The notes beneath the pieces are model-generated. The model was given only the letters and a program-made list of their open reading frames with translations. It did not search any database and had not been told where the DNA came from. This document shows, piece by piece, positions 471-53,464 of a stretch of 64,000 nt of DNA; position 1 is the stretch's first letter, and each line of letters opens with the position of its first letter. The position numbers and the translations under genes were made by a program. This DNA comes from Raja brachyura (Eukaryota): contig OY740804.1 of the NCBI GenBank assembly GCA_963514005.1, positions 2,232,001 through 2,296,000 of the forward strand. Direction: 5' to 3'.

Positions 471-3400
471 TTGCCGAGCTGAGGAACCTCGTAGCCAGTA
501 TCAATGTTGCTCATCCCACCAGCAACGGCAGCTGAGAGCAGCAAGCGTGGCTGTCCTGTGCTTTTCCCCTCGGCCTCGAAGGCAGCCATCAGCTCCTGTG
601 GGTCAGAGAGATCGAGGGCTCCTTTAGCAAGAGGTCAAGTCTAGTCTTAGCAAGGGTCCCGACCCGAAATGTCATCTATACTTTTTCCCCAGAGATGCTG
701 CCTGACCCGCAGTGTTACTCCAACACTTTGTGTCAATTTCAAGTTTGGTTTAGTTTGGTTCAGAGATGAAGCGTGGAAACAGGCCCTTCGGCCCATCGAG
801 TTCACGCCGACCAGCGATTATCCTTTCACTCTAGTTATATCCTACATACTTGGGACAATTTACTGAAGCCAATTAACCTACAAACCCACACATATTTGGA
901 TTGCGGGAGGAAACCAGATCACCTGAGGTCACGGGGCGAACGTACAAACTCCGTACAGACAGCATCCATGGTCAGGATTGAACCCGCGTCTCTGGCGCTG
1001 TGAGGCAGCAACTCTACCCCTGCACCACCGTATCGCCCAAGAGTGGGGAAGAAACCTTTTAATCCCCACTCAAAATGGTGCTTGGTTCAAATTTTATTAA
1101 ATTCTTAATTTCTGAATTCTTAAATTCCTTTGTGTAATCTGTGAAAATCTGTCCTTGGTGATCTTGACAATAAGGTTGCATTTATTGGATAAATTTGCAA
1201 GTCATAGAGCTATGTGGCGTGACAACAGACCCTTTGGCCCAACCTGCCCGCACCGACCAATGTGTCCCATCTACACTAGTCCCACAAAGTGCTGGAGTAA
1301 CTCAGCGGGTCAGGCAGCATCTGTGGAGAACATGGATAGGTGACGTTTCACAGAGTGCTGGAGTAACTCAATGGGTCAGGCAGCATTTGTGGAGAACATG
1401 GATAGGTGACGTTTCACAGAGTGCTGGAGTAACTCAATGGGTCAGGCAGCATCTGTGGAGATAAAGGATGGGTTTGGCCTGCGTTTGGCCCATTTATTTT
1501 AACGAAACCCATAGTGAGATGTACTTGACCGCACCTGAGCCAGGACAGTGTAGAGGTGCTTGTCAACAGGGGGACTTCCTCGAGATCCAGGATATTCCCA
1601 ATCGATGTCCAGACCGTCAAAGCCGTACCCTCTCAGGAAGGCGATGACTGACTTGATGAAGATTTGCCGAGTTCCTGATGAGGCGACCATCGCGGTGAAT
1701 CTGCAGGAGGGGTGAATGTGGGGAGAGGAGTTAGAAATGAAATGTGCCGGAGACACGAGGAACGGCCGCTGTACTCAGTGACCCAGTGACTCTGCTGTTA
1801 TATCCTATCATGTACAGATTCACCCAAGCCTTTGTTAAATGCTCAAGTGTTTAGTAAATTACTCCTTTCTCCTGTTATCATCTGAAGTTTCATGTGAAAT
1901 TATTCTTTTTGAAAATAATGTTTAGTTTAGTTTAGAGATACAGCGCAGAAACAGGCCCTTCGGCCCACCCAGTCCGCACCGACCAGCGATCCCCGCACAC
2001 TAACACTATCCTGCACACGCAAGGGACAATTTACGTTTATACCAGGCCAATAAACCTACAAATGGGTACGTCTTTGGAGCGTGGGAGCAAACTGAAGATC
2101 TCTGAGAAAACCCAGTCGGTCACAGGGAGAACGTACCAACTCCACACAGACAGCACCCGTAGTCAGGATCGAACCCGGGTCTCTGGTGCTGTAATATAGA
2201 AAACGTAATTGTAATCATGGTACAACTAGACAAAATAGCACAACCTTTTAGCAAAAAAAGGCTGATTTAGGCACTCGATCGTGAAAAAGGCTTCTTGGCC
2301 AAAGGCATGAAACGCCACATGGCATTAATGGCAAAATTACCATACACACCCACTGTTTACGTCGGGCACATGGAACTACAGGTGCTGGTTTACGAAAAGA
2401 AAAGACACAAAGTGCTGGAGTAACTCAATGGGTCAGGCAGCATCTCTGGAGAACATGGATAGGTGACGATTCCGGTCGAGATCCTTCTCCAGGCTGAGTT
2501 ACTGAGGAGTTACTCCAGCACTTTGTGTCTTTCAATATTCATTCCATATCACAGTCAATTGGAAAATAACTCTTATTTTTTTTAATCTAATGCTAACGTA
2601 AAAAGTTTCCATCTTACTTCTGGGTGCCAAAGTTCCATCCTCCAATGGACAGCAGAGTCTTGAGGTTTGAATTCCTTAAAAAAATGGACAAAACGTGGTT
2701 TTAGAATGATGTTTAGAACAACAGAACATTTTCAGAACTTCTCAGGAACTGGATCTTCTGTTTTTTCGCCCCTTTGGTGTTACGTTTCGTTGAGGGGCTT
2801 TGCCTTAGTCTGGATCTCAAGGGGGTCACAGAAAATGAGGTACAAGTTCACGCAACAAGGCTTCATAAGCAAGGGCCAGTCTCACTCTGTGGGCTGAAGG
2901 GCCTATTTCCTCAATCTGTGACTCAATGATTCTGTTGGCCTGTCCAATAACTTTCTCCTGAATATCCCCCTGGACCAAGTCACCTTTCAGACAGGGGAGG
3001 TGGATGAGATGAGAAAACCTTCAATAAATGGATGTATAACAGGGTCATGGCAAAGACCCTGTTGACCATCGATCACCTGTTCACACCAGTTCAACATTAT
3101 CCCACTTTCTCATCCACTCCCTACGCACTTGGGGCAATTTGTAGAGGCCAATTAACCTAGAAACCCTTTGTAATGTGGGAGAAAACCGGTAATCTAGAGA
3201 AAACCTACACCGTCACAGGGAGAACGTGCAAACTCCACAGAAACAGTGCGCGAGGTCAGGATCGAAACCAGGTCCCTGGCGCCGTGAGGCAGTGACTCTA
3301 CCCGCTGACCCACTGTGCCGCCCGGTACGTATAACAGATGGATTCTTGCCACATACTCTTCAAAACAACTTGTTAAAGAAGGAACTGCAGATGCTGGAGA

Positions 3401-4761
3401 ATCGAGGGTTACACAAAAAGCTGGAGAAAATCAGCGGGTGCAGCAGCATCTAAGGAGCGAAGGAGATAGGCGACGTTTCGGGTCGAGACCCTTCTTCAGA
3501 CTTGGATCGACCATTTTGAAGAGTTTGAAATCCAATGTTCATTAAACACTGGATGTCCCTTCACTTACAGCAAGGACCAGGGAATTCATGGTTAAATTTA
3601 ACCCAATCAGACCCAAATCAGCAGGGTTCCACTCCACCCATTTGTCTCCATCGAGCTGTATCTCTGAGAAGTTAGGCATCACCTTGGTACTTAAAGTCTA
3701 AATTATCCCACTGAACCATCCTCTCACCAACTAGAGAGCGGTCCTGACCTCCCATCTACCTCATTGGAGACACTCGGACTATATGTAATCAGACTTCACT
3801 GGACTTTATCTTGCACTAAACATTATCCCCTTCATCCTGTGTCTGTACATTGTAATCATGTACAGTCTTTCTGCCGACTAGTTAGCACACAACAAAAAGC
3901 TTTTTGTTGTACCATGGTACACGTGACAATAATAAACTAAATTAAACTAAATTAACTGTGGAATATGGGTTATGGGATATTGGTTTGGGGAATATCCAAT
4001 ACAATGACTGGTTAACACGCAACAAAAACCTTTCACTGTCCTCAGTACAGGTGACAATAAACTAAACTGGACAATGTAAACATCGCAACAATGCCCGACA
4101 TTTGAGACACAAGGTTAAGCCCCTGTCCCATTTTCCCGAGTTACTCACGAATTCTCCCGAGTTTTCCCCTTAATTCAAACTCGGAGATGCCAGCCGTAGG
4201 TACTCAGGGCTATTTTTTTTACTCATGGACATTTTTCAACATGCTGAAAAAACGTCCTGACTTACCTGATTCCCCCGAGTACCTACGGCTGGCAATACGA
4301 GCCGCTACGAAGTATCTGCGGACTCCTACCGACTCGCTACAGACATTCTCCAAGTTTGAATCAAGGGGAAAACGCGGGAGAATTCGTGAGTAACTCGGGA
4401 AAGTGGAACAGGTGCTTTAGTATTTATTCAGCAACTGTACTTGTTCTTCAGGCTGTTGATCTCATGGTAGAGTTTTGGGTCGTTCCATTCATAGATGGCG
4501 ATCTGATTGCTCTTCATTCCAGCGAAGGCGTAGATGATGTGGGTGCAAAGGCAAGGGTCCACGTTCTGGGGCATGTATTTACCCTCTCCTGGTCTGTACT
4601 GCGTCCAGTTGGTGAAGTAACACACCAGCCTGTAGGCAGAGCCTGGGCATGGGGGAGACAGGGCGGTCAGGACAATATATCTGTGGCACTCACACAAAGT
4701 AAAGCAAGGCTGCAAATGCACAAAGACTCACCCAGTTGCAGGCAGGCCAGTAAGACCACCG
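471..4761 (-). CDS. CHIA: GH18 chitinase (CHIA-like), copy A, coding exons 2-6; 3' exons lie left of the window
   Basis: GT-AG exons 4732-4761 ([11 protein letters not shown]), 4441-4642 ([18 protein letters not shown]...CTHIIYAFA), 2618-2674 ([18 protein letters not shown]), 1535-1700 ([17 protein letters not shown], catalytic DxDxE), 471-595 (ELMAAFEAE...GYEVPQLGK). Sizes 30/202/57/166/125 match vertebrate CHIA/CHIT1 exon structure. Confidence 0.93.
1284..1460 (+). repeat. 66-bp tandem repeat (Penelope-terminus-like), ~2.7 units; ~3.7 at 29795-30040, ~2.7 at 61009-61188
   Basis: Unit CACAGAGTGCTGGAGTAACTCAATGGGTCAGGCAGCATCTGTGGAGAACATGGATAGGTGACGTTT. Confidence 0.9.
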
Positions 4762-5409: not shown

Positions 5410-8400
5410 CTGTGTCACTCATGTTATGAGATACTTTGTATCTACGCTCACTAGTTTAACACAAAGCTTCTCATCCCTTTCTCCCTCAGTTTTGTGTTAC
5501 ATATTAAGATGAAGTTACCTATGCTGTAATGCTAATAAAGTATTTGGATTTTAATCACTGTGTGTGACCTAAGTTATCCCAACAGCAGAAGCTCGACATG
5601 GTGTCAGAGTGTACGGACTCACTCCTTGCTTAATTATATTGCTTTTATTTTAGTTTGTTGTTTGTTGTTTTCTCCGGTATATATTACTATGGCCTCTGCT
5701 CTCAGAAAACCAGAGATCCCGTGCAACACCACAAAGACCTTGCAGAACGATGGTGTATATTTGAAGAAGATTTCTAAATTTACATTGAAGCGGCTCAACT
5801 TACTGCTGCTCCAGGTGTTCGAGCATCAATTCTTCTTAATCTAGCAGGCACAGAAGCTGCTCGATGTGCCAGAAGATTTTATTATGAACTAGCTAGGTTT
5901 GACCCAGCTAATGTCCAGATCGCTCCCGCTGAGTCTTTCTGTGACCCTGACTGCCTACTACGCAAATTCCGATAGTTATGTGAGTTACGCACTAACCTGG
6001 TCATGGAGAGGCATTTGTTCTTTTCTCGAATCCAGAGACAGGGTGAACCAATGGAGATGTATGTCAGTGCCTTGAAGCACGTTGCCAATCGATGCGATTT
6101 CAGGGATATATGTGATAGACTAGTCCGTGACTGTTTGGTCTATGGTGTCCGCTATGATAAATTATATGATGAGTTACTGCGGGATGCTGAGCTTACCCTA
6201 GAGACTGCTGAAAACCACTGTCGCATCGCTGAATTGGCTGATGCTCATACAAACGTTTTAGGGCACTCTGCTGGTCGTGAAATTAATGTTGCCGTTCTCC
6301 TCAAGTGCCCGACAACTCTATCGTGAGACTAATAGACAATTGTTTTAACTGTAGGGGTTCGCATGCTGCTGCTCGTGACCGTTGCCCTGCGCATGGAAAA
6401 TTATGTTGATTCTGTAACAAAAGGAATAATTTCTTCAAATGCTGCCGCTCGCATAGCAACAGAGTTCAAACAAAGCAATCTGTTAATTCTCTCAACCAAC
6501 TCCCACGGATAATCAGGCTGCTAGCGAAGGTTTTGACTTGGATGTGCATTCCCGTCAGACTCAATACACAAACAACTAGATCCCAAGGTCGCTTTGCTCA
6601 TTAATGGCAAGAACCTTTATCTGAAAGTTGACACAGGGGCCAGATGTAATGTGATCTGTCTAGCTGTGTTGAAAAAGGTACGATAAACAGAGACTGTCAC
6701 TCCTACGGCTACCTCCCTTCTCCCATTTGCAGGAGGTCCAGTGCACCCTATAGGTCAAGTTGAGTTACGCTGCTGTCTTAACTCACGTATCCACAACCTG
6801 AGTTTCCATGTTGTTCGTGAGGATGTGCCGACGTCTCTGCTGGGTGCCAACGTATGTCAAGACATGGGTCTTATCTCTTTCAGCCCTTCTGTTTATCATC
6901 TGACTCCAACCTGTGACTTTAGCCAACAAATCTGACACAAAACAAAACGTTTTTGGATGACAAGCTAGACAGGTTGCATGTTAAGTACACAATTACCATT
7001 AACCCTGAGATCATCCCAGTTGCCGAACAGCACACAAGATTCCCCATGCTATGTGGGACCGCGTTCAAAGTGAACTGAACAGAGTGGTGTTTCTAGGTGT
7101 GATTGTTCCCATCGCTGACCCCTCGGATTGGTTGTGGCAACAAAGAAGAATAAATATGAAATACAGATTTGTGTGAACAAGTGTGGACACTGTGGACAAG
7201 ATTGCAGCGCAGATGGCTGAAGCAACTGTAGATGCCAAGAGTTCATTCTGGCAGATCTCGCTGGAACACAACTCCTCCAAGTTAACCACCTTCAGCACAC
7301 TGTTCAGGCAATACAGATTACTTTGCATGCCTTTTGGCATAAGCTCTGCCAGTGAAGTATTTCAACGAGCTATGGAGCAGTTGTTTGTGGGTTACCCATG
7401 CTCCATTGTAGTGGATGACATCCTTGTTGCTGGACGAACTGTTGAAGAACACAATGCTAATCTGACAAAGGTCTTGGATCGCTCCAAGGCCATTAACCTC
7501 AAGCAAAACCCAGGGTAAGTCAGGTGAAATGCATAGGCCATATGTTCACTAAGGACGGCCTAAAAACGGATCCGGTGAAAACCAGTGCCATCAACGAGCT
7601 CCCAGCACCCACACACGTGCTTGGTCTACAAAGATTCCTTGGCATCGTGAACTACTTGAGAAAATCTTTTCTGAACTTCAGTGAAATATCAGCCCCATTG
7701 CGCTGTGGTCCCTGCTTTGCTGCACAGCAAGTATATTGACGCTGTCCATGTCGGGCACCCAGGCGCTGAAGCCACCATCCTACGGGCAAGAAACATGTTT
7801 TACAGGCCTGGCATGGCTGAATACATCACCGAGAATGTGACCTCCTGTGCAGTGTGTAACAGCTTGGCACCTCATCAACAAAAGCAACCACTTCTTTCAC
7901 ATCCGGCTCCTGCTCTCCCGTGGTCTACAGTGGCAACTGACATATTTGAATGGCATGGCAAGCAGTACCTGGTACTTGTCAATTTGTATTCTGGATGGTT
8001 TGACATTGATTTTCTTAGCAGCCCCACTTCTCGCGGGGTAGTTTCGAAACTAGCTCGCCATTTTGCAGACCACAGAGCTCCGTGCATACTGCTGTCTGAT
8101 AATGGCAGTCAATTTACCAGCCAACACTTCAAGGAGTTTGCTGCATGTTGGGGTTTTCGCAACATCACCAGCAGCCTTGAATATCCACAGTCGAATGGAC
8201 CAGCTGAGTGGGCCGTCAAGAGTACCAAACAGCTCATGGAATGATCGTACAGAGCTAATTCTGACTCCCACTACCCCGTTTTGGGTTCACCAGCTCAACG
8301 TTTATTCTCGAGGCAGACCCGAGCCACGGTGCCTGTGGCGGATCAGGCATTGATCCCACAGGTGGTTCCACCATCGGAGGTCCAGTCCAGGTTACAAAAA

Positions 8401-9168
8401 AAGCGTGACATTCAAAAACAGTGGTATGACAAGACAAGTAGACCACTGCCACCATTTTCCAAGGGGCAGGTGGTTCATTTGCAGACTGACAATGGCCGTA
8501 TCTGTGTAATTTCTGGAACAGCTTCTGAGCCACGTTCATATCTGGTCAGTGCCGATGGCAGCACCTACAGGCGTAACAGACAAAATATCCTGCCAGTGAA
8601 TGAGCCGATTCCACAACCGTACAAGTGTACTTCTGTCTGTTTCTGGCATTGATCCGCCTACACCAGCACAACAACCCACTTCGGGAGCGGCTGCTTTGCC
8701 GGTGCCGACGCCCCCTCCGCCTGTGCTGAAGTCCCCTGTTTCATCACCGGGAATGCTGGTTCAATCTCTGTCACCCGTGAAGCCACCGGCTCTGTCCATG
8801 GTTGGGAAAAACGGAGATGGTTTTTATCGCACACAAGCTGTCATGTTTGCAAGCCCACCGTGAAGTACCCGGGCTACGTTTGACTTTCCCCCAGCTTATT
8901 ACCAATTGCTATCCATGCCTTATTTAGTCAATGGTTTTGTACTGACATTTTTTTTTTTTAAGAGGGAGGATGTAGATCAGTGTCACTCGTGTTATGAGTC
9001 ATACTTTGTAGCTATGCCCACTAGTTTAACAGAAAGCTTCTCAGCCCTTTCTCCCTCAATCTTGAGTTACGTATTAAGATGAAGTTACCTACGCTGTAAC
9101 GCTAATAAAGTATTTGTATCTTAATCACTGTGTGTGATCTAAGATATTCTAACAGCAGAAGCTCGACA
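5410..9168 (+). mobile_element. Decayed Gypsy/Ty3 LTR retrotransposon
   Basis: LTRs ~5410-5598 and 8971-9168 (TG...CA); PBS TGGTGTCAGAG 5599; PPT AAGAGGGAGGA 8960-8970; TSD TTCCC (5405-5409, 9169-9173); frameshifted gag, protease (LKVDTGA), RT (MPFGISSA, VVDDIL), integrase (HVGHPG...CAVC, SDNGSQF) in Gypsy order. Confidence 0.93.
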
Positions 9169-11293
9169 TTCCCTGGAGGACATTTGCTGTGAAGGACGCA
9201 GTGTTCTGGGATAGAAACTGTAGCCGGTAGGGCATTGTGATGATCACCAGGGGCGCCGGGGAGATGGCAGCCCTACCGGCAGTCTGTTCATTTTTTCATC
9301 TTTTTGTTATTTTTTTGTATTTGTTAAAAGTTTGAATAATGTACCTTGGTTTGTTTTATGTGGGGGGAGGGGGGATCGGGGGAAACTTTTTTTCAGGTTG
9401 TTACCTTCCCGGAGATGTGAGCCATAGCTGGAGCTGGAAGCCGCCTCGAACTGTCGTAAGTCCCACCGCGGAGAGCGGACTTAACATCGGAGCGGATCCC
9501 TTACCTGGGATCGCTCCCACCACGGCCTGCGGACTTACCATCATGGATTCGCAGTCTCGGGAGAGGCAAGTCGGGAGCTCCAATGCCACAGAAGGTTCGA
9601 CCAGCCCCGACACGAGATTGGATCGCTCGGCGCGGGGGAGCTGAACGCGTCTACGCGGGTGGCCCAAACACCACCGGCTACAGGATTCAAGATCATCCCG
9701 TCAACGGAGGGCTCGAGGCCCACGACCGAGGGAGAACAAAAGGGAAGGACTTGAACTTTATTTCGCCTTCCATCACAGTGAGGGATGTGTAGGAGTCACT
9801 GTGGTGGATGTTCATTTTAAAATGTGTTTTTGAGTCTGTTGCTTTTAATTGTATGACTGACCTGGCCAGTGAAATTCCTCGCATGTTGCAAAACATATTT
9901 GGCGAATAAAATCTGATTCTGATTCTTCTGATTCTGATAACTGCCTAACTGACAGTGTAGATTTGAAGAAATCCAACTTTTAAATGTAACTTTAAAACAT
10001 TTAAATATCCCCCTCTGCGTCCCTCTCCTTACAACAATATACAAACACTTTCATAGCTTGTGTATTGACAGCAAAGATCCCATTGTTAAGTCATTTTCAG
10101 TTTTTGGAATGTTCACGGCAGCTTATGTAATTAAGATCCCATTGTGATTGGACAACTGTGGGATGCCATTGTGACATCGCTGGAAGAGTCTCCCTCTCAA
10201 AGGCAGTTATTATTCTCAAAGTTGGCTTTTTTTAAACTTTACATATCAATAACTTGTGAAATATAACAACAAATCTGAAGGAAACATTACATTGACGACG
10301 GGAAAAAAACTGAGTAAGAATCTGCAAAATCCCGGAGACAATCATTCCCATCACCCATTCCCCAAACGTAACCCATTCGACCAACGCAATATTCCACCAC
10401 TCACCCAGAGCCCCCAACTGCGCAAGTGCCGCTCATTGCCCCTCATCCCCAACACTTCCTCCCCCTCCCTCTTCTCTCCCCTCACCTCCTCCCCTCCTCC
10501 ACTCCTCTTTCACCACTCCCTCCTGCTCCTTTCCCCTACCCTCAGCCCCTCCCTACCCTCAGTCAGTCCCTCACACCCCCCATAACTCCTCTCCCCTCCC
10601 TACCCTCCTGACCAATTGGGCTTTGTCTCCCAAACTCTACTGCTGCGCCACCGTGACCACCTATTTATTAAATGTTATCTATGGGTATGGTGTTTCCAAG
10701 CCTATTCTGCTGCTGCAGGTAACCATTTAATTGTTGCATTGTCGGTACATACGACAATTAAACAATCTTGACTGTAGACTCTTGACACCTGAGACCATGT
10801 GATTCACCTAACTTCAGCGACAAACATCCTCTCTTGCTCGGTTCTGTTGAAGGATCTTCATTCTGAATCGTTGCCTCTGTTGCTCCACCACAGATGCTGC
10901 CTGACCCACTGTGTGTCTCCCACATTCCCCTTTATTTTTGTTCCTGTTCTCAACATCTGCAGACTCCTGATTTTCCACATGTTGTTCCGTCCCTGTGTGG
11001 TCATGACCACAAATGGACACAGCTCATAGAACCCGGTGATGTTGCCCGTATTGAACAGGACTTGCACAAAGTTCATACCCAACTCAATGCTGGCGTACAA
11101 AGAATCACTCACACCGGCTGTCTTCAGGGCAGGCAGAAGAGAGTTTATTTCCATTAAAGTCCATTTACAGGGTCAGTTCTCCTCACTGCATGCGATCCGA
11201 AGGGCATGTTTCCCTGCTTTAACTCTGAACTAAACTAAACTAAACTAAACTAAACTAAACTTTGCAAGGGCCCTGCTGAATCAGTGGGAGGTT

Positions 11294-11827
11294 TCACTGG
11301 ATTGTCAGCCGGGCCAATTCTTCACATTCCCTATCACGAAAGGTGGTCCAGACACAGGAATATGTCCCCTCATCTTTCTCTTTTACACCTGTCAGGAGCA
11401 ATGAGCCGTCAAATTCAGGAAAGGGATCTCGATGCATGAACTCCCAGCGGACATCATGGCCCTGATATAGGTAAGGTATTCTAGTATGATTCATGGCAAT
11501 TTCAGCACCATCTTTTCTCCATTTAACTACTCTGAGAGATTCGTAATCTTTGGATACTTTACAGGGCAGCGTAATAGAACCACCCAGAGATGCAACGAGC
11601 ACCTTCATGTTAATCGATGATAGGTGATGACTGTATGTATCAGAATCTGTCTCGTTCGTGCATCTTGAAATCTGTTTAACGTTGACTTGCCGAGGAGCCC
11701 GTGCGTTCCACCCGGGCAAGTTTGCTTCCTCTCCCCATTCTCTGGCGATCGGACCTGTTCCAGTTCCGGAGACTTGCCACACCATCTCCACAAGGACCAT
11801 GAATCCTATCCGTCTCTGCAGTCCCAT
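11294..11827 (-). CDS. Putative secreted prepro single Ig V-type domain protein, paralogue 1 (177 aa)
   Basis: Signal-like MGLQRRIGFMVLVEMVWQVSG, pro-region ending RAPR, V-set motifs GGSITLPC, VKWRK, DGSLLLTGVKEKDEGTYSC; no TM; splice acceptor 4 nt before ATG; AATAAA at 11144-11149 (minus). Confidence 0.88.
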   Translation of the reverse strand: MGLQRRIGFMVLVEMVWQVSGTGTGPIAREWGEEANLPGWNARAPRQVNVKQISRCTNETDSDTYSHHLSSINMKVLVASLGGSITLPCKVSKDYESLRVVKWRKDGAEIAMNHTRIPYLYQGHDVRWEFMHRDPFPEFDGSLLLTGVKEKDEGTYSCVWTTFRDRECEELARLTIQ

Positions 11828-12401
11828 GTTCCTGTGGGTGAAACAACCTTATTGCAACTCAGTAGGATTCATGATGACATTCTCTGAACCTCCCCAGAGT
11901 TGGGGAATCGAGAACCAGAGGACATCTGTTTAAGGTGAGGGGGGGAAAGATTTAATGGGAAACTGAGGGGTGACTTTTTTACACAAAGGGTGGAGGGTGT
12001 TTGGAACGAGCTGCCGGAAGATGTAGTTGAGGCAGGTACTATCACAATGATTAAGAAACAGTTAGACAGGTACATTGATAGGGCAGGATTAGAGGGGTAA
12101 GGGCCAAACGCAGGCAGGTGGGTCTAGTTTTGATGGGGCAAGTTGGTGGGCGCGGGCAAGTTGGGCGGAAGGTCTCGCTGTATGACTCTATGACTCACTT
12201 GTCCCACCCCGGTCATTCCTCCTTCTCCCTGGTCCTGTCTAGCAGAAGGTACAGAAGCTTGAAAGCGCGCACCACCAGACTCAGGAACAGCTTCTTCCCC
12301 TCTGCTATCAGGCTTCTGAACTGGGGGAACAGTGAACAGAGACAATCCCACCCCCATCACTCACAGACACTTGAAGGATCCATAGGGTGGCTACCAGCTC
12401 C

Positions 12402-12627
12402 TTTTATACCTACTCCCGGCTTCTCCTGACCTTCATTGCCTGCGCTCCCGTACATTCAACCAATCACTGCCTCCCACGGAGCATTGGCCGGAGTCAGCCG
12501 TGACCTCTCCACCCTCTGCCAACTGTGTCCTTGCATCAGCCGTTAACGTTTAACAAGAACAACGTCATCACAGCTGCCAGCGGCCAACCAGGCGCCCCAC
12601 ACATCCTGCTTGTGTCTCCACCACGTC
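12402..12627 (-). promoter_or_regulatory. Promoter of Ig paralogue 1: TATA box, ERSE, CCACGTC site
   Basis: TATAAAA 12402-12408 (minus); CCAAT-cactgcctc-CCACG 12460-12478; second CCAAT at ~12483; CCACGTC 12621-12627. Unit-2 copy: TATA 41509-41515, ERSE 41567-41585. Confidence 0.7.
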
Positions 12628-14583: not shown

Positions 14584-14947
14584 CCAATCACTGCCTCCCA
14601 CGGGGCATTGGCTGGAGCCAGCCGCGACCAATCCCACCGCACAGCCGGCTCAGATTGAGTATAAACTGTGAAACCAGCGCAGGTGCCAGGGCTGTGGTGG
14701 TGACGTGGCGTGGCTGGGACATCCCAGACACAAGCAGGATGTGTGGGGCACCTGGTTGGCCGCAGGCAGCTGTGATGGCGTTGTTCTTGTTAAACGTTAA
14801 CGGCTGATGCAAGGACACGTTTGGCAGAGGGTGGGGAGGTCAATGATGGTCTGGATAAACGGGGAGAAGGTATAAAAGGGGCGAGCGATGGCAGGAGATG
14901 GAAGTAAGACCGGCCTCGTCAGCCTGTGTGGAGACTCCGGAGCTGGT
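14584..14947 (+). promoter_or_regulatory. Promoter and non-coding exon 1 of Ig paralogue 2: distal ERSE, UPRE, TATA, splice donor
   Basis: CCAAT-N9-CCACG 14584-14602; TGACGTGG 14701-14708; TATAAAA 14871-14877; donor ctg|gtaac at 14946; intron ends 15492. Unit-2 copy: ERSE 43590-43608, UPRE 43707-43714, TATA 43909-43915. Confidence 0.72.
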
Positions 14948-15496
14948 AACCACCCCTGTGGATCCTTCAAGTGTCTGTGAGTGATGGGGGTGGGATTGTC
15001 TCTGTTCACTGTTCCCCCAGTTCAGAAGCCTGATAGCAGAGGGGAAGAAGCTGTTCCTGAGTCTGGTGGTGCGTGCTTTCAAGCTTCTGTACCTTCTGCT
15101 AGACAGGACCAGGGAGAAGGAGGAATGACCGGGGTGGGACATGTCTTTGATTTTTTTGGTTGTAGATGGAGTGACTGGTGGGGAGTGTGGTCCGTGTGAT
15201 GGACTGGGCTCCATCCACAACTCTCTGCAATTTCTTGTGGTCTTGGGCTTAGAGCTGTTCCCAAACCAAGCTGTGATGCAACCCGACAGTCTGCTTTCCG
15301 TGGTGCATCTGTAGACGTTTGTAAGAGACATTGGAGACTTGCCGTATTTCCTTGGTCTCCAAGGAGGTAGATGCATTGGTGTGTCTCCTTGGCTGCCACT
15401 TCACATTGCCCAGTGTGGTGGCAGCAACTTCAGAGAATATCATCATGAATCCCACTGAGTTGCAATAAGGTGACCCATTGTTTTACCCACAGGAAC

Positions 15497-15997
15497 ATGG
15501 GACTGCAGAGATGGATAGGATTCATGGTCCTTGTGGAGATGGTGTGGCAAGTCTCCGGAACTGGAACAGGTCCGATCTCCAGAGAATGGGGAGAGGAAGC
15601 AAACTTTCCCGGGTGGAACGCACGGGTTCCTCGGCAAGTTAACAAACAAGAAACTCCAGAATGCGGTGTTAAGGCAGATTTGACCAAGATGATGAAGATG
15701 ACGGCACGCAAGGGTAGTTCTGCTACGCTACCCTGTGAAATACCCACAGGGAAGGATGGACCCACGCATTTTGTGGTCACCTGGAGGAAAGGGAAGGTGA
15801 CACTGGGCGTGTTTACTAAAGGGAAAGGTCCAATCTATCCAGGGGGACCCGACCGCTGGAGGTTCGTGGATCCAAACATGGTTGATGCCTCGTTGATCGT
15901 CACGGATGTAAGCGAGACTGATGCTGGGATGTATTCCTGTGCTTGGTTCACTTGCCAAGGGGAATGTAGACTAAATGTCAAGCTGGCAGTGAAGTGA
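15497..15997 (+). CDS. Putative secreted prepro single Ig V-type domain protein, paralogue 2 (166 aa)
   Basis: ATG at 15497 after acceptor ttttacccacag|gaac; same leader, RVPR, GSSATLPC, VTWRK, DASLIVTDVSETDAGMYSC; AATAAA 16429-16434 followed by a GT-rich element. Confidence 0.9.
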   Translation: MGLQRWIGFMVLVEMVWQVSGTGTGPISREWGEEANFPGWNARVPRQVNKQETPECGVKADLTKMMKMTARKGSSATLPCEIPTGKDGPTHFVVTWRKGKVTLGVFTKGKGPIYPGGPDRWRFVDPNMVDASLIVTDVSETDAGMYSCAWFTCQGECRLNVKLAVK

Positions 15998-17095
15998 AAC
16001 CTCCCACTGATTCAGCACAGACCCCTCCAAGTGTCAGGAGCAACAGGCAGTGGCAGGTCAGCACAAACACAATAACATCCTTCATTATAAACTTGACACA
16101 CATAGGCCAACAACAGCATTATATATTGTAGTCACTGAATTCATCATGAGGGGAATAGAGGGGTGGACACTAAGCATCTTTTACCTGGGGTACGGGAATC
16201 AAGAACCAAGGGACATACATTTAAGGTGAGAGGGGCAAGATTTAATATTAACCTGAGGGGCAATATTTTCACTCATGGGGTGGTGGGTTTATGGAACTGT
16301 CCGGTGGGGCGGGAACTGTAACAATATTTAATACACACTTGCTACAGGGAAAGGTTTAGGGGGATATGGGGTGAACACAGTGCAATGGGACAGACCCTGC
16401 TTGCACCGGTAAATGTACCATTAATGGAAATAAACTCTCTTGAAGACAGCCGGTGGTGTGAGTGATTCTTTGTGCGCCAGCATTGAAGTTGGGTGTGAAC
16501 TTTGTGCAACTCTTGCTCACTACGGGCAGCATCGCCGGGTTCTATGAGCTGTGTCCATTATTGGTCATGACCACACAGGGACGGAACAACATGTGGAAAA
16601 TCAGGAGACTGCAGATGTTGCGAACAGGGACAAAAGTAAAGGGGAATGTTTTTCAGGAACAAAACAGGAACAAAAGTAAAGGCAGATGACACAACAGTAG
16701 GCGGGTTTGCAGATAGTGGAGATGGTTGTGAAAAATTGCAGCAGGATCTTGAAATATTGGCCAGGTGGGCTGAGGAACGGTTGATGGAATTTAATACAGA
16801 GTAATGTGAGGTGCTGTATTTGGGGGTGTCCAACATGTGCAGGACCTACACAGTGAATGGCCCGGCTCTGGGGAGTGTTGTAGAGCAGAGGTTTGGAGGG
16901 GTATGGACCAAACACAGGCAGGAGAGACTATTGCAGCTGGGACATGTTGACCAGTGTGGGCAAGTTGGGCTGAAGGGCCTGTTTCCACGCTGTATCACTC
17001 TGTGACTACTACACTATGACATTAAATAAATAATGATTATAAAATGAAACTCCACATAAATCTCACCTTCTCCTCTGGCTGTATACACAGCACAC

Positions 17096-18177: not shown

Positions 18178-18849
18178 ATGGGACTGCAGAGATGGATAGG
18201 ATTCATGGTCCTTGTGGAGATGGTGTGGCAAGTCTCTGGAATTGCAACAGGTCCGATCTCCAGAGAATGGGGAGAGGAGGCAAACTTGCCCGGGTGGAAC
18301 GCACCTGCTCCTCGGCAAGTCAATGAAGATCCAAATCCACAATGCAGTGTTAACCTCGCTCCGGACAAGATGAGATGGACGGAGGTGACGGCCAGTAAGG
18401 GTGGTTCTGCTCAGCTATCCTGCAAAATGCCCAAAGAAGATGGTGCAGCCGATAAAGTTGTGGTGCTGTGGACGAAAGGAAAAGACACGATCGCCGTGTT
18501 TACTGACAGGAAGGGTGCGCAATATCCAGGGTCAACCGGACGCTGGAAGTTCATGAATGCAAACGTGGTTGACACACGGGACGCCTCGTTGGTCCTGGCG
18601 AGGCTGGAAAAGGATGATGCTGGGAAATATTCCTGCGCTTGGCTAGTTAATAACGTGCCTTGTAAACAAAACACCAAAACCCCCCCCCTCTCTGCCCACA
18701 CTCCCAACCTGTGCAAGTCCTCCTGTAGCGACTCCACCTATTTTTGTATCCCTTCAATACCGTTGGCACTCATCTTCCTTAGCAGCCTCACGTGCGGCAC
18801 TTTATCAAAGGCTTCAGAAGGGGACTTCCGAACCAGGGTCACAGTTTAA
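18178..18849 (+). CDS. Ig V-type paralogue 3, C-terminus replaced by antisense CR1 sequence (possible pseudogene)
   Basis: Same leader (PAPR), GGSAQLSC, VLWTK, DASLVLARLEKDDAGKYSC; homology ends at PCKQNTK (18678), then reverse-strand CR1 RT sequence (SLQEDLHRLGVWAER); the family's post-stop motif is missing. Confidence 0.78.
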   Translation: MGLQRWIGFMVLVEMVWQVSGIATGPISREWGEEANLPGWNAPAPRQVNEDPNPQCSVNLAPDKMRWTEVTASKGGSAQLSCKMPKEDGAADKVVVLWTKGKDTIAVFTDRKGAQYPGSTGRWKFMNANVVDTRDASLVLARLEKDDAGKYSCAWLVNNVPCKQNTKTPPLSAHTPNLCKSSCSDSTYFCIPSIPLALIFLSSLTCGTLSKASEGDFRTRVTV

Positions 18850-19130: not shown

Positions 19131-20214
19131 CTGTGACTCGCTGGAGCCACAACGAGGATGTGTGGGGCACGTTGTCAACTGTTGGGACATCTTTGATGAC
19201 CACAATCTCGTTAGTAATTAACGGCGGCTGACTAGCAACCACACAGAGACAATTCTGGGCACCACTCTGTGAACAACAATGTTTGCTTGACACCAGTTTG
19301 TATTGGGGTAACATAGCTGTAGAGTTACTGCCTCACAGTGCCAGACACACGGGTTCGACTCTGACTACGGGTGCTGACTACCCGTGACAACAGCCAGAAC
19401 CTTTTCACCAGAAGAGAAATACCAATTACTAGAGGATGTCACAGGCAGTTCAAGTAGATCACCAGAACAATTTTCCCAGGGTGGGATGTAAAGGACTAGT
19501 GGGCAGAGCTTCAAGGTGAGAGGGGCAAAGTTTAAATGAGATGTGTGCGGCAAGTTTTTTTTACATGGAGAGTGATGGGGGCCTGGAACGCGCTGCCAGG
19601 GGCGGTGGTGGAGGCAGATATGATGGTGGTGTTTAAGAGGCTTTTAGATTGGCACATTGATATGTAGGGAATGGAGGGATACGGATCACGTGCAGGCAGA
19701 GAAGATTAGTTTAACCTGTCTGCAGGTGAATGGTGGAATCTGGGAGAAATTGAAAACCATATAGAGAGAATAAAGTTGGATTAGATTAGTGTAGATGGAT
19801 GGCTGTTGGATAGCATGGACACAAAGGTTCTGTGTCTCTCTGAAAACAAGATTGTGCAAAAGCTTGAAAGGTAAGTAACTGCATGTGACTGTGACATTCA
19901 TACTGATGTGATCCTTCCCTCTGGAAGGCGACTCCGGACTGTCAAAGCTCAACAGCTTTTTTTCCCCATGAGCAGTAGCTCTACTCAGCAACCAGAAATC
20001 TGTAGCCTCCTTGTGCTCTGGTATTCTATGTCATTCTTCACATGTTTAAATTGTAATGTTTCATTCCTAATTGTTAACTGCATATCGTGTTGTTACTTGC
20101 GAGCAAAACACCGAGCCAAATTCTTGTATATATACATACTTGGCTAATTACAGTTATTCAATTCAATTCATAGCAACAGAAATTGCTGACTTTAATTGAT
20201 AAACTGTTTATCAG

Positions 20215-22374: not shown

Positions 22375-22985
22375 TCACTACTGATGGGTTTTCAATCACT
22401 ACTGATGGGTCTTCCCTATAGGGGGGTTGGGGGGTGGAGCACTAGGACCCAGCAGAATCGTCACTACTGATGGGTCTTTCCTATAGGAATGTGGGTTTGG
22501 GGGGGCACTAGGACCCAGCAGAGTCATCATCAAAATTATAGAGCTCTCTTTGATCTTTGGTCATCATCACTGATGGGTCTTCCCTATGGAGGGGAGGAGG
22601 GGGGCACTAGGACCCAGCAGAGTCATCACCCCTGATGGGTCTTCCCTATAGAGGGGAGGGGGGGCACTAGGACCCAGCAGAGTCATCACCACTGATGGGT
22701 CTTCCCTAAAGAGGGGAGGGGGGGGCACTAGGACCCAGCAGAGTCATCACCCCTGATGGGTCTTCCCTATAGGAGTGTGGGTTTGGGGGGGCATTAGGAC
22801 CCAGCAGAGTCATCACCACTGATGGGTCTTCCCTATAGAGGGGAGGGGGGGCACTAGGACCCAGCAGAGTCATCACCCCTGATAGGTCTTCCCTATAGAG
22901 GGGAGGGGGGGCACTAGGACCCAGCAGAGTCATCACTACTGATCGGTATTCCCCATAGGGGAGTGGGGGGGGGGGGGCACTAGAT
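22375..22985 (+). repeat. ~60-bp G-rich minisatellite (~10 units)
   Basis: GGCACTAGGACCCAGCAGAGTCATCACCACTGATGGGTCTTCCCTATAGAGGGGAGGGGGG repeated. Confidence 0.93.
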
Positions 22986-24842: not shown

Positions 24843-27800
24843 CTAAGGCCAGTTGCAGCATTTACAGGATGAGTCGAAGACCAATCCTGCGGCACAGCTC
24901 TTCACGTAGGTCCGACCATCATCGCACTGGTAGAACTTGTTCTTGTTCTTGGGATCGGGGAAGGTACCATTCGCTTTGCCCTGACAGAAGCCACTGCCTC
25001 CACCACCGCTGCCTCCACCACCGCTGCCTCCACCACCGCTAGGAGCATCAGTAGGTGGGACCGCCGGCTTCAATGTTGTCTTGGATGGGACGCAAGCTGC
25101 AGAGAAACACAGTTCGTTATCTTCTCCTAAAGTCTTAGGAGAATTAGGTGATTTGGCCCATGGACTTACCCCACCTTTCAATCATGGTTGATCTATCCCT
25201 CCCTCTCAACCCCATTCTCCTGCCTTCTCCCCATAAACCCTGACACCCGAACTAATCAAGAATCTGTCGATCACCGCCTTAGAACGCAGGTCCACAAAGT
25301 ATGAATATCCCAGTCAATGGGATTATGCCACTGAACCCCCCTCTCACCAACTCCAGAGTGGTCCTGACCTCACATCTACCCCAGATGCTGGTTCATAAAC
25401 AGAGACACAATGTGCTGGAGTAACTCAGTTGCTTGTTCTCTATACCCACCACTCCATGTGTGTAAAACGTAGCTATCGCACCTAGTCTTACCACTATCTG
25501 CCTCCACCACCCCCGGTAGCGTGTTCCAGGCACCCACCACCCTCTGTGTGAAAGACTGGTCCTGCACATCTCAATTACCTCCAGAGATGCCAAGGCCAGA
25601 GTGCAGAGTGTTGATGAGGGGGTAGGGTCCCTGGTGACAGAAGGCACCAGAGAAGTCATCCAGAGCCAGATCCCAGACCATAGCTCCTCCAAAGTTGTTC
25701 TTCTTCAGCCACTCAACCTGGAAGACACAGTTCACATCTTTACACCAGCATCCCTCAGTCAATAATGGCTTCTACGATGCGCTGTAGAAAGCTTTTTATC
25801 GGCATTCAACACAGCACGGTTTGGGAATGGCTCCATCCAAAACCCGCAGGAAATTGCAGGGAGTTGCTGACGCAGCCCAAACCATCACGTAAACCAACCT
25901 CCCTTCCATTGACTCCATCTACACCTCGCGTTGCCTCAGCAAGGCCACCAGCATAATCGAGGAACAGTCTCACCCCAACACCAGAGAAATAAAACAGAAA
26001 TTCCAAGTTTCCCCGATGTGAATCCTAACCCCTTTCTCCTGCCTTCTCCCCATAACCCCTGATACCTGAACACCATGAGTTTATGGTGAGCTGGAAATAT
26101 TTTGTAGAATGTAATGATTCCAAGGATTTTGAAGCATAATTCTGGAGCTCACTGTTGGAAACTCTGCAGTAGATATTGAGATAAACGTGACCACGATGGC
26201 TCACGTGGAAAGGGTGGAACTTCGATGGTCAGATGTACCATGTCTCCGAAGCTCTTGACGTTGTCATAGCCGACCCATATTCCATTCTTGAAGGCGTACG
26301 GGGTGTCCTGTGGGGCATTCCATTCGGCGGTGGCACCATTCAGGAACCCGCAGATCTGTCCAGAGAAGGAGATGTTAGGGACCAATCTTGCCGAAGTGGA
26401 AAAAAATCATGAGAGGAACCGATCAGGTAGATGCAAAGTGTCTCTTGCCCAGAGTCGGGGAATCGAGAACCAGAGGACATAAGGTGAGGGAGAAAGATTT
26501 AATAGGAATGGTGCTGGCTTGGAGGGCCGAATGGCCGACTCCTGCACCTATTGTCTATTAAACCTGAGGGGTAACGATTTGACACCGATGGTAGTGGGTG
26601 TATGGAACAGATGGGTGGAGATAGTGACAAAAGCTGGAGGGGAACAGGAGACAAAATAGTGTCAGATACTGATAGAAGAGGAACAGAGAGATGTGCAAAG
26701 AGAGGAGGAGAGAGATATGTGAAGAGAAGGGAGAAAGACATGAAAGAAGGATAGAAAGAGGAGAGGAGGGAAAGATATATAAAGAGAGGAAAGAGAGATA
26801 TGTCCAGAAAGAGGAGGAGAGAGATGTAAAGCGCGAGGGAGGGATGTGGAGAGAAGGAGATAGCGGGGAGGGCAAATAGGAAGGGGAGGATAGAAGGGAA
26901 ATGGGGATCTCTGAGAGAAGAGGAGGGGAACGGAGAACGTGGGTGTGCGATGTTTCGGATGGAGATCCTTCCTCATGTGTCCATCTATGTTGGTTATTCA
27001 GTATTGGATTGGAAGATAACATTGAGTAAAGGGCCACGCGGTTGGATTGGTCGGTAGGTACAGTACCTCATAGTAGGCCAGGAAGCCGGCTTGGCGGGTG
27101 AATTTGCCGGCTGGTCCAGCGCCTCCTGCTGGGGCACCCACGGCCGTGCTGGACGAGGTCAGTCTGAAGGTGTGTCCGTAGGTGGGGAAGCCCACATTCA
27201 ACTTGTCCACTGGAGCCCCCTTGCTCTTCCAGTAGTTCATGGCATATTCCTGCAGGGACACAGTTGACATCAAAGGACTTTAGGCTCATGTTTAACATTA
27301 GGTTTATTATTGTCACGTGTACCGAGGCACAGTGAAAAGCTTCCAAACAGATCAGATAATACCGTACATAAATACAATCAAGTCAAACTCAGGTACAATA
27401 GATAGAACAAAGGGGAAGGTACAGATTGCAGAATATAATTCTCAGCATCGTAGTGCATCAGTTCCACAGACAAAGTCCAATGTCCGCAATGGGGTAGAGG
27501 TGAATCGGACAGTACCCTAGCTTATGGAACAACTGATCAGAAGCCTGATAGCAGAGGGCAAGGAGCTGTTCCTGAGTCTGGTGGTGCGCGCTTTCAAGCT
27601 TCTGTACCTTCTGCTGGACAGGACCAGGGAGAAGGAGGAATGACCGGGGTGGGACAAGCCTTTGATTCTGTTGGCTGTTTTTCTGAGGCAGCGTGAAGTG
27701 TAGATGGAGTCAATGGTGGGGAGTGGGGTCTGTGTGATGGACTGGGCTCCATCCACAACTCTCTGCAACTTCTTGTGGTCTTGGGCTCAGAGCTGTTCCC

Positions 27801-30800
27801 AAACCTAGTTGTGATGCAACCCCACTGTCGGCTCTCCATGGTGTTTGGAACAGTTATATGGACTCGGCTAAATAGGTTTATAAATTCGGGGAGAGGAAAT
27901 GAAAAAGTTGAGCAGGATTTATTTTTCTTGAGCACTTACCACATTGAAGTGGGTGTTGGTGTAATCATTGTCATTAGGCAGGGCATAGAGGGGGCTGTTC
28001 TCTCCAGTAACGTGGCTCCAGGGACCATAGAAATCGTAGGTCATCACGTTGAAGAAATCAACTACCCTGCAAGAGAGGAGACCGGGTCACCCTGATACTC
28101 CATGCACCAAATTAACATCAGAACACAGAACAGTACAACACGTGAACAGGCCCTTCTACCCACATTGTCCGTGCCAAACATGACGGCAAGATAAACTCAT
28201 CTCCTCTGTCTGCAAGTGATCCGTATCCCTCCATTCCCTGCATATCCACGCGCCTATCCACAAGCCTCTTAAACACCACTATCATATCTGCCTCCATCAC
28301 CACCCCTGGCAGCGCATTCCAGGCATCCACCACCCTCTCTGTGTAAAAAAAACATGCACATCTCCTTTAAACTTGAACATGGTGCCAAGTCCATCACTTA
28401 TCTACATGCACATCCCCAACATCCCTCCATGCCCAGCATTATCATGTGCCCATCTAAAGGTCTTTTAAATGCACTAAGGTATCTACTTCAACCACCACCC
28501 AGCAGGTTCTGGCTGTCTACCCTATCTATGCCTCTAGTGATTTATAAACTTCTATCAAGTCTCTCCTCAACCCCTGATGTTCCAGAGGAAACAATGCAAG
28601 TTTGTCCAACCTCTCCCTGTATCTAATCCACTCTAATCCAGGCAACGTTCTGGTAAATCTCCTCTGCACCGTCTCCAAAGTCTCCACATCCTTCCTGTAA
28701 TGGAGACAACCAGACCTGCACGCAATGCTCTAAATACCTCCTGGCTAAAGACCGACAGAGCTGCAAGTTGGCTTCCTGACTCTCACGCTCAATGCGCTGA
28801 CCGATGAAGGCATTGAATGCATTAGGGTTGTGGATGGATCTCAATCAACGTGCTGGAAGCTCCCACCATTGAAATTCTGGAGCGATGAAAAACTAGTTCA
28901 AATACGACGTCAAACTGGCTAAACGCCCGAGATGAAAGCCCACAGGAAAAGTTGGGTTTCTTTGTGTGTAGAAGGACACTCACTTGCCGAGCTGAGGAAC
29001 CTCGTAGCCAGTATCAATGTTGCTCATTCCACCAGCAACGGCAGCTGAGAGCAGCAGGCGTGGCTGTCCTGTGCTTTTCCCCTCGGCCTCGAAGGCAGCC
29101 ATCAGCTCCTGTGGGTCAGAGAGATCGAGGGCTCCTTTAGCAAGAGGTCAAGTCTAGTCTTAGCAAGGGTCCCGACCCGAAACGTCATCTATACTTTTTC
29201 CCCAGAGATGCTGCCTGACCCGCAGTGTTACTCCAACGCTTTGTGTCAATTTCAAGTTTGATTTAGTTTGGTTTAGAGATGAAGCGTGGAAACAGGCCCT
29301 TCGGCCCATCAAGTCCACGCCGACCAGCGATTACCCTTTCACTCTAGTTATATCCTACATACTTGGGACAATTTACTGAAGCCAATTAACCTACAAACCC
29401 ACACATATTTGGAGTGCGGGAGGAAACCAGATCACCTGAGGTCACTGGGTGAACGTACAAACTCCGTACAGACAGCATCCATGGTCAGGATTGAACCCGC
29501 GTCTCTGGCGCTGTGAGGCAGCAACTCTACCCCTGCACCACCGTATCGCCCAAGAGTGGGGAAGAAACCTTTTAATCCCCACTCAAAATGGTGCTTGGTT
29601 CAAATTTTATTAAATTCTTAATTTCTGAATTCTTAAATTCCTTTGTGTAATCTGTGAAAATCTGTCCTTTGTGATCTTGACAATAAGTTGCATTTATTGG
29701 ATAAATTTGCAAGTCATAGAGTTATGTGGCGTGACAACAGACCCTTTGGCCCAACCTGCCCACACCGACCAATATGTCCCATCTACACTAGTCCCACAAA
29801 GTGCTGGAGTAACTCAGCGGGTCAGGCAGCATCTGTGGAGAACATGTTTAGGTGACGTTTCACAGAGTGCTGGAGTAACTCAATGGGTCAGGCAGCATCT
29901 GTGGAGAACATGGATAGGTGACGTTTCACAGAGTGCTGGAGTAACTCAATGGGTCAGGCAGCATCTGTGGAGAACATGGATAGGTGACGTTTCACACAGT
30001 GCTGGAGTAACTCAATGGGTCAGGCAGCATCTGTGGAGATAAAGGATGGGTTTGGCCTGCGTTTGGCCCAATTATTTTAACGAAACCCATAGTGAGATGT
30101 ACTTGACCGCACCTGAGCCAGGACAGTGTAGAGATGCTTGTCAACAGGGGGACTTCCTCGAGATCCAGGATATTCCCAATCGATGTCCAGACCGTCAAAG
30201 CCGTACCCTCTCAGGAAGGCGATGACTGACTTGATGAAGATTTGCCGAGTTCCTGATGAGGCGACCATCGCGGTGAATCTGCAGGAGGGGTGAATGTGGG
30301 GAGAGGAGTTAGAAATGAAATGTGCCGGAGACACGAGGAACGGCCGCTGTACTCAGTGACCCAGTGACTCTGCTGTTATATCCTGTCATGTACAGATTCA
30401 CGCAAGCCTTTGTTAAATGCTCAAGTGGTTAAAAAATTACTCCTTTCTCCTGTTATCATCTGAAGTTTCATGTGAAATTATTCTTTCCGAAAATGACGTT
30501 TAGTTTAGTTTAGAGATACAGCGCAGAAACAGGCCCTTCGGCCCACCCAGTCCGCACCGACCAGCGATCCCCGCACACTAACATTATCCTGCACACGCAA
30601 GGGACAATTTACGTTTATACCAGGCCAATAAACCTACAAATGGGTACGTCTTTGGAGCGTGGGAGCAAACTGAAGATCTCTGAGAAAACCCAGTCGGTCA
30701 CAGGGAGAACGTACCAACTCCACACAGACAGCACCCGTAGTCAGGATCGAAACCGGGTCTCTGGTGCTGTAAGGCAGCAACCACCAAAATATGGTTAAAA

Positions 30801-53300: not shown

Positions 53301-53464
53301 TATATTTAAGTTTCTAGTTTAGTTTATTATTGTCACGTGTACCGAGGTGAAGTGAAAAGTTTAATGTGTGCGTGCTATCCTGTCAGCGGAAAGACTACAC
53401 ATGATTACAGTCGAGCCGCCCACAGTGTACAGATACAGGATGAAGGGGTTAACGTTCTGTGCGT

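Follow-up and report, generated by a model that had tools for sequence, protein, structure and literature searches.

A divergent immunoglobulin V domain between near-uniform flanks: probable gene conversion in a chitinase-linked skate gene family

INTRODUCTION

Two neighbouring genes of the skate Raja brachyura are nearly identical in leader, intron and post-stop sequence, and the domain encoded in between has come apart; how can one coding exon hold both? The genes lie in a stretch of 64,000 nt (contig OY740804.1, forward-strand positions 2,232,001–2,296,000), which we call the window and whose coordinates are used below unless the contig is named. In a preliminary description made from the letters of the sequence, the arrangement was likened to the precursors of toxins and antimicrobial peptides (AMPs), and either accelerated evolution or cassette-like exchange through the conserved flanks was proposed as its cause. 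The locus is a test case for why silent sites in the leaders and untranslated regions (UTRs) of toxin-like precursors stay conserved while the mature part varies. Here a single exon allows hypermutation, selection and gene conversion to be told apart, and the evidence is in favour of old domains, converted flanks and selection on one branch.

RESULTS

The contrast between leader and V domain

The leaders of the genes starting at 15497 (forward strand) and 11827 (reverse strand) are identical at 45 of 49 residues (0.92 of 49 codons), with 5 of 147 nt different; the residue count is exactly the one first given. Past the leader the similarity drops as sharply as described: 30-nt windows are identical at 28–30 of 30 positions up to about 15630 and at 11–22 of 30 from 15632. 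The V domain is indeed about a third identical (31% of 115 aligned codons, or 42 of 117 residues by pairwise alignment; 149 of 345 nt different), and non-coding DNA is better conserved than this domain, the 5' intron of the pair differing at only 2 of 167 nt.

Directly after the stop, the motif TGAAACCTCCCACTGATTCAGCA is exact at 15995–16017 (+) and 11274–11296 (-), and is found again at 45112 and 40359. The genome search suggested for these 23 nt gives eight matches, all at family genes, and a reversed control gives none. The return of similarity at the stop is narrower than had been claimed, since exact identity runs for only ~25 nt past the stop and gives way to weaker homology and different repeat insertions. 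The shared poly(A) region is present, at 87% identity over 255 columns, but somewhat shorter than first outlined (16406–16649 against 11171–10922).

The gene family and its setting

Both paralogues of the preliminary description are real, but they are not the whole set: five family copies start in the window (15497, 11827, 18178, 40912 and 44605), and the 2.7-Gb genome contains 16, a count to be read as a lower bound, with 15 of them inside a 190-kb chitinase cluster. Protein searches of the genome give the same 16 strong matches and elsewhere weak matches only. The 254 kb around the window hold 15 V-domain genes and six chitinase loci; the sixteenth copy (H, the far copy) is 25 Mb off, and the 10 kb examined there contain no chitinase exon. 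Twice in the window a complete ~30-kb unit of a tandem repeat occurs, carrying chitinase exons as well as V-domain genes. The V-domain genes are thus interleaved and co-duplicated with chitinases, a link that may be only positional.

The 16 copies fall into eight lineages: A (four copies), B (four), C (two), D (two), and E, F, G and the far copy H. The 15497 gene is of A type. Its partner is of B type, with a 177-aa coding exon at 11294–11827 (-), the post-stop motif at 11274–11296 and the common 3' box at 10922–11171. A second B-type copy (40379–40912, -) has the same V domain (0 of 384 nt different), and the V domain of a second A-type copy (44605–45114, +) differs from that of 15497 by 18 replacement changes and one silent change. 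The C-type paralogue (18178–18849, +) combines a B-type intron with an A-related V domain, and its 3' end is replaced by a repeat from ~18680, together with the post-stop motif. Decay of copies is seen in this replaced end, in a promoterless D copy and in two stop-bearing copies, namely one of the four B copies (one stop) and G (two stops). In two public runs, the C-type 3' end looks intact.

Other features of the region may be recorded here. The repeat at 18680–18849 extends the C-type protein by a tail of 56 residues; this tail includes a hydrophobic stretch (YFCIPSIPLALIFL) and could anchor an otherwise secreted domain. The two D-type genes form an inverted pair with identical V domains (contig 2367995–2368525 and 2373696–2374229), one of them without promoter and exon 1. 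The six chitinase loci (GH18 plus chitin-binding domain) occupy window positions 1502–4727, 24846–33807 and 56071 to the end, and span contig positions 2174332–2401167; four of the six lie in the ~30-kb tandem unit, with 96–99.6% identity between units. Frames resembling those of LTR retrotransposons by eye (pieces of gag, protease, reverse transcriptase and integrase) at 5900–8700 and 34800–37800 adjoin the chitinase 5' end in two tandem units. The window also has a tandem minisatellite with long proline-rich open frames (22395–22983 and 53463–54198) and an open frame that looks like the end of a hAT-type transposase (30860–31351 and 62008–62499).

Gene structure

The 15497 gene is preceded by a family-wide block at 14726–14877 (+) that probably serves as promoter. 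It contains a TATA box (14871–14877) and a palindrome (14789–14801) which we take to be HNF1-like, with two mismatches to the consensus. Because such two-mismatch sites number 27 in 254 kb against 7–19 in five shuffles, the palindrome is a lead only. The 1.3 kb inspected ahead of one chitinase exon contained no block like the family promoter. Exon 1 (14888–14976, +) is likely non-coding, and its splice site is taken from Leucoraja protein models, which join the two exons. An upstream ATG at 14888, in frame both in this gene and in those models, was considered and rejected as the start for the family as a whole: it stands only 17 nt past the TATA box, and its frame is broken in two A copies, E and the far copy and lost in B and D. 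A single intron follows (14977–15492, +; GTGAGT...ACAG), of which ~15020–15335 is a dispersed repeat. Leader and V domain are then encoded in one exon from 15497. Downstream, the post-stop motif (15995–16017, +) is exact in eight copies and recognisable in 13 of 16, and the common 3' box (16406–16649, +) includes AATAAA at 16429–16434.

Promoter-like sequence is also found apart from intact genes. A 94-nt element with an HNF1-like palindrome, distantly similar to the promoter, is identical at window 19158–19251 and contig 2193980–2194073; it is present in each tandem unit and lies inverted beside the promoter of pseudogene G. An orphan family promoter occurs upstream of the first chitinase (contig 2162871–2162972), with no exon 1 or V domain nearby. 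All four B-type genes lack ~65 nt just past the TATA box (window 12373–12408, -), leaving a very short exon 1, and three of them have identical V domains.

The encoded protein

Codons 1–21 (15497–15559, +) are predicted to form a signal peptide, with a hydropathy peak of 2.06 and a cleavage site placed by eye after VSG. A 25-residue pro-piece of net charge 0 (15560–15634, +) ends in PR before Q47, where a second cleavage is predicted, and the island of divergence is the mature immunoglobulin (Ig) V-set domain with its stop (15635–15997, +). Four of four proteins tested match the V-set profile PF07686 at 32–38.5 bits (cut-off 26). The hallmarks of a V-set domain, namely the B- and F-strand cysteines, the C-strand tryptophan and the D-x-x-x-Y-x-C motif, are represented by C80, W96, D142 and C148, which are invariant in 16 of 16 aligned copies, and an extra pair of cysteines, C56 and C157, in all 18 aligned proteins, the electric-ray homologue included; we infer that these two are bonded to each other. 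The AlphaFold model shows a V sandwich and a disordered leader, block pLDDT being 73–91 from residue 61. It matches the V fold over 101 residues with Z 15.0 and rmsd 1.7. Nectin, CD200 and domains of that kind lead the matches at ~20–28% identity; across the fold matches identity is 14–28%, and the likeness is a generic one.

In each of the 16 copies the reading frame has one V domain and closes shortly after it, within a short tail. The mature domains show no transmembrane segment, the best 19-residue hydropathy being 0.55–1.49 when the repeat-derived tail of C is left out. Their charges run from -11 to +8 across lineages: A-type domains are cationic (pI 9.0–9.5), the B type has pI 6.2 and the far copy pI 4.5. 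The charge of the pro-piece, by comparison, stays between -1 and +1 across copies. PRQV is kept in the homologue from the electric ray Narcine at ~30% overall identity, and the leader is by this comparison also constrained as protein; since three of nine Leucoraja-type proteins have changed PRQV, cleavage at PR-Q may not be universal. In the FG loop, the 15497 copy alone has a fifth cysteine (codon 153, window 15953), which was not found in the other A copies or in public contigs.

The toxin- or AMP-like layout of the preliminary description therefore holds for the prepro leader, the variable mature part and the conserved UTR, but what varies is an Ig V-set domain of 120–133 aa. The likeness to conotoxins does not go beyond this arrangement, and no result of the analysis indicates a toxin function.

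Divergence by region

Over 33 pairs of copies from different lineages, excluding the far copy, the median difference is lowest in the 5' intron (1.8%, first 167 nt) and higher in the 3' intron (4.8%), leader (5.4%) and promoter (8.8%); V third positions reach 41.5% and the V domain as a whole 43.5%. Silent divergence (dS) is 0.093 in the leader and ~0.64 in the V domain (range 0.2–1.1), values that between lineages are near saturation and depend on the alignment. In the 15497/11827 pair, seven of 17 four-fold sites differ in the V domain and one of 24 in the leader. Protein-level selection cannot explain a contrast in which silent sites differ in one part of the exon and are alike in the other.

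The best-conserved piece belongs to a dispersed repeat with 3726 candidates in the genome, inserted at one same site in all lineages. Its best unrelated copies are 91–97% identical, a best-of-many figure that may understate the age of the repeat. As a dispersed repeat with diverged unrelated copies, the 5' intron piece is unlikely to be under strong selection. The far copy has a leader 11–13.5% diverged, compared with 0.7–8.8% within the cluster; even so, its flanks resemble those of the cluster far more than its V domain resembles the V domains there, and it must therefore have left after a phase of homogenisation.

Age of the V domains and of their flanks

In the V tree, several lineages pair with genes of Leucoraja or Rhinoraja: F (support 100/100), C (94/92), G (94/95) and B with D (95/97). 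The placement of the A group is not settled, and Narcine and E are long branches. A V clade of Leucoraja sequences only is rejected (p-AU 0.0003; 8 rows against 11, with Narcine and the Logan protein left out of the test). Because the V domains group by orthologue and the Leucoraja clade is rejected, the V lineages must be older than the divergence of this skate from Leucoraja. A shifted stop, ending ISH, is likewise common to D and Leucoraja LOC129708938/939. Between species, the C pair is identical at 103 of 120 V residues and 41 of 47 leader residues, and the F pair at 104 of 128 and 37 of 47.

In leader and exon 1, three residues follow the species instead. All eight named Leucoraja proteins have Ala21 in the leader and Asp9 and Gln22 in exon 1; the 15 clustered Raja copies have a Gly-type codon 21 (mutated to a stop in one) and, where the exon-1 sites are kept, codons for Gly9 and His22. 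These species-specific states comprise three residues, with Leucoraja compared as protein only. Gene C is chimeric, joining an A-related V domain (100/100) to an intron repeat of the B, D, E and F type, with the switch ~45–75 nt before the ATG. The leader tree alone, which is shallow and has little signal, does not reject an A+C clade (p-AU 0.134). Taken together, old V lineages, leader and exon-1 states that go by species, the chimeric C and the diverged flanks of the far copy make gene conversion of the flanks likely: conversion (or unequal exchange) would homogenise the flanks around old V domains. On these comparisons, the contrast between leader and V domain is due mostly to the flanks, which are far more recent than the V lineages.

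Selection on the V domains

Three distinct A-type V domains differ by 30 replacement changes and one silent change, where 24–28% silent changes would be expected (p 0.0006–0.0025). They are 5.4–6.8% different, against 1.1–2.8% for their flanks (Fisher p 0.018 to 3e-6). In three public runs, 22 of 33 variants are alleles of other assembled A copies, and the differences between A copies are for that reason not assembly errors; the 11 new variants (nine replacement, two silent) are not significant alone (p 0.35–0.50). Enrichment of A-type changes in loops is not significant either, as strands hold 10 of the 28 changes and 58 of the 117 positions (p 0.13).

Among the B copies, the V domains of the three intact ones do not differ at all (0 of 384 nt), although they sit in the same duplicated units as A and their flanks differ by 0.9–2.3%. 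Between lineages dN/dS is near 1, rising to 1.5–1.9 among B, D and E. In recent duplicates the V domain has 0–1 silent changes at ~80 sites (A) and none at ~86 (B), and silent hypermutation is unsupported because these duplicates have no silent excess there. Judged from these counts, fast V change is branch-specific and belongs to the A type.

Both mechanisms first proposed thus play a part, in a different mix, and each proposal is borne out in part. Accelerated evolution fits the A-type branch, but the C and F V domains diverge no faster than their leaders. Exchange fits flanks younger than the V lineages and one chimeric gene, but it is the flanks, not the V domains, that would be exchanged.

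Distribution and previous description

The only relatives that the searches turned up are from skates and a single electric ray, where they are labelled uncharacterised or nectin-like; the closest named relatives of the 15497 protein are from the skates Leucoraja and Rhinoraja. Leucoraja LOC129708937–942, 945 and 946, Rhinoraja LOC144605155 and Narcine 'nectin-1-like' XP_069798310.1 are true members, with the same leader, the four cysteines and, in most, the PR-Q junction, and their names are automatic only. Among the best 150 matches of a profile search over 1.84 billion representatives, two are full-length and single-domain (Leucoraja and Narcine) and the remainder are generic multi-Ig proteins; a word-based profile search gave eight proteins, all batoid. 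No shark member was among the matches of these searches, which does not by itself prove absence from sharks. Outside the family, the best-scoring V domains (33–48 bits) belong to uncharacterised proteins and to various butyrophilin-, CD276-, CAR- and nectin-like ones. A search of the ESM Atlas returned only generic small V-set clusters, and a sequence search of the PDB returned designed repeats and generic Ig domains.

A literature search for the six Leucoraja LOC identifiers found no paper naming them. The family was likewise not found in work on skate Ig and V-set proteins, batoid chitinases, skate reproductive glands or gene-converted hypervariable Ig domains, in a search mostly of journals outside subscription, and is absent from the accessible part of the review PMC6795676. 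The evolutionary process is known, the gene family was not found in print, and its build, a pro-piece before a lone Ig V domain, is unusual. The analysis thus defines a batoid gene family that has so far had automatic database names only.

DISCUSSION

Proposed explanation

We regard it as very probable that conversion of flanks around old domains is the evolutionary mechanism. Conversion tracts would start in the common promoter, intron, leader and 3' region, and tracts that erase a V domain would be removed by selection; once the V domains had diverged, tracts would stop at the domain edges and leave sharp borders. Copies would be born and lost while conversion keeps one promoter–leader–UTR cassette uniform. 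Cleavage at PR|Q would free a V domain with an N-terminal Gln, and a C56–C157 bond would tie the indel-rich N-terminal arm to the FG loop, giving an added variable binding loop. The lineages might then each have their own ligand on a microbe or parasite, and diversifying selection would still be acting on the A type.

On function, innate recognition appears to fit best, since the V domain is predicted to be secreted, several lineages are long-lived, charges span -11 to +8 and diversifying selection is seen; an immune-type binding role is nonetheless an even call on what the sequences offer. The complete explanation, in which old V domains with conversion-overwritten flanks are probably secreted innate binding proteins, we consider fairly probable. 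Should that role hold, the immunity of cartilaginous fish would gain a soluble V repertoire that does not rearrange. A bolder and improbable extension is a germline repertoire of free single-V 'innate nanobodies': one conversion-uniform cassette of promoter, leader, pro-piece and UTR would carry interchangeable binding domains, set free by cleavage at PR|Q and acting with the chitin-binding domains of the co-duplicated gut chitinases; if true, V-domain genes and chitinases would be the equivalent, in a vertebrate and split over two genes, of the VCBPs of protochordates.

Alternative explanations

The same contrast might arise without conversion, in recent duplicates whose flanks are held by purifying selection on RNA elements while selection or local hypermutation drives the V domains apart, a course proposed for conotoxins and for the salamander pheromone plethodontid modulating factor (PMF). 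The replacement excess in the A copies is strong, dN/dS is near 1 between lineages and 1.5–1.9 among B, D and E, a short 23-nt motif between different insertions suits a selected RNA element, and in PMF, according to PMC6487043, ~30% protein identity against ~98% UTR identity is ascribed to purifying selection. We nevertheless think this unlikely: the V lineages predate speciation, the best-conserved part is a repeat-derived intron (1.8%), recent duplicates show no silent excess in V, and in the orthologous C and F pairs the V domain has not outpaced the leader. It is still harder to see the V domain as a cassette whose exchange is programmed, whether in somatic cells or through dedicated machinery working from the flanks, as in lamprey VLRs or avian Ig conversion. 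Sharp borders inside one exon, the chimeric gene C and a number of potential donors among pseudogenes and copies without a promoter are what such a system would have, but every locus carries a complete germline V domain, the V lineages are stable across species, none of 10 representatives has a recombination signal downstream, and public DNA contigs contain no joints across the V region. We rate this as extremely unlikely.

Other alternatives accept flank conversion around old domains and differ in what the proteins do. Reproductive proteins (of seminal fluid, clasper or shell gland, or sperm–egg recognition) or pheromones, with sexual selection on the A type, would share the same history. HNF1 is active in the kidney-derived genital ducts too, the closest folds are cell-surface recognition domains (nectin, CD200), and courtship pheromones, as PMC6487043 describes, are among the secreted protein families that are confined to one clade and evolve fast while their UTRs are conserved. 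Several old lineages kept in two genera and so broad a range of charges suit varied targets, however, and the genes are interleaved and co-duplicated with chitinases; a reproductive role, the second in likelihood after an immune one, is possible but doubtful. Toxins or membrane-active antimicrobial peptides, which the prepro layout brings to mind, would account for the cationic A-type domains (pI 9.0–9.5), but the mature part is a full Ig V domain, the pro-piece is neutral rather than acidic, and the B type (pI 6.2) and far copy (pI 4.5) do not share that charge. Skates and electric rays are not known to have a venom spine, and no toxin is among the listed PDB sequence and fold matches. The signal, pro-piece, basic cleavage site and invariant cysteines do resemble those of spider and cone-snail precursors as outlined in PMC4029134; even so, we find such a role very unlikely, and secreted binding proteins in converted flanks stay our preferred reading.

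Comparison with known systems

Frog skin peptide precursors have the same prepro layout, and AMP precursors generally combine a short mature peptide (<~60 aa) with an acidic pro-piece. The skate proteins differ from conotoxins and AMPs in a mature part that is an Ig V domain of 120–133 aa and in a conserved, neutral pro-piece; there is no homology, and recent skate copies show no silent hypermutation. What is shared with conotoxin and spider-toxin prepropeptides, as described in PMC4029134, is a conserved signal, a basic cleavage site (predicted here), invariant cysteines and a variable mature part. PMF is alike in that its copies, at ~30% protein identity, have UTRs that are much better conserved, and in being under positive selection; it differs in its three-finger fold and, in PMC6487043, in the ascription of UTR conservation to purifying selection, whereas the best-conserved skate part is a repeat-derived intron.

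Among Ig-type proteins, the VCBPs of amphioxus and Ciona are, in the partial accounts available, likewise secreted and polymorphic, with non-rearranging V domains and a link to chitin biology. They have two V domains fused to a chitin-binding domain, whereas the skate frames end after one V domain; a search of longer proteins for a VCBP-like build, a weak test, gave one generic multi-Ig match. By the standard definitions of the recombination signal sequence (RSS) and the J-type FGxG motif, the skate family differs from UrIg and from antigen receptor V genes in having no C domain, no FGxG motif and no split leader, and no RSS was found downstream of V in 10 of 10 representatives scanned. Elasmobranch UrIg is itself a non-rearranging, secreted-only Ig-superfamily protein of cartilaginous fish, but in PMC12227049 it is described as conserved and MHC-linked, with a VJ domain and three C1 domains. 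Nectin, B7 and CD200 receptors continue from V into C domains and a transmembrane helix, where the skate genes stop after the V domain. By the features tested in these sequences, the family is not conotoxin, AMP, VCBP, antigen receptor or nectin.

The closest parallel in process is given by converted duplicates with a divergence peak, for which PMC3924837 names the human red and green opsins, RHCE/RHD and protocadherins. In the opsin-type duplicates described there, non-coding DNA is homogenised within species and the selected part is diverged and grouped by orthologue. The skate genes have probably followed this course; they show both the low silent and intronic divergence of the flanks and the orthologous grouping of the island. 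They differ in scale: eight lineages are involved, dS in the island reaches 0.2–1.1, and the island is a whole domain of 350–390 nt within one exon, its borders being those of the predicted mature protein.
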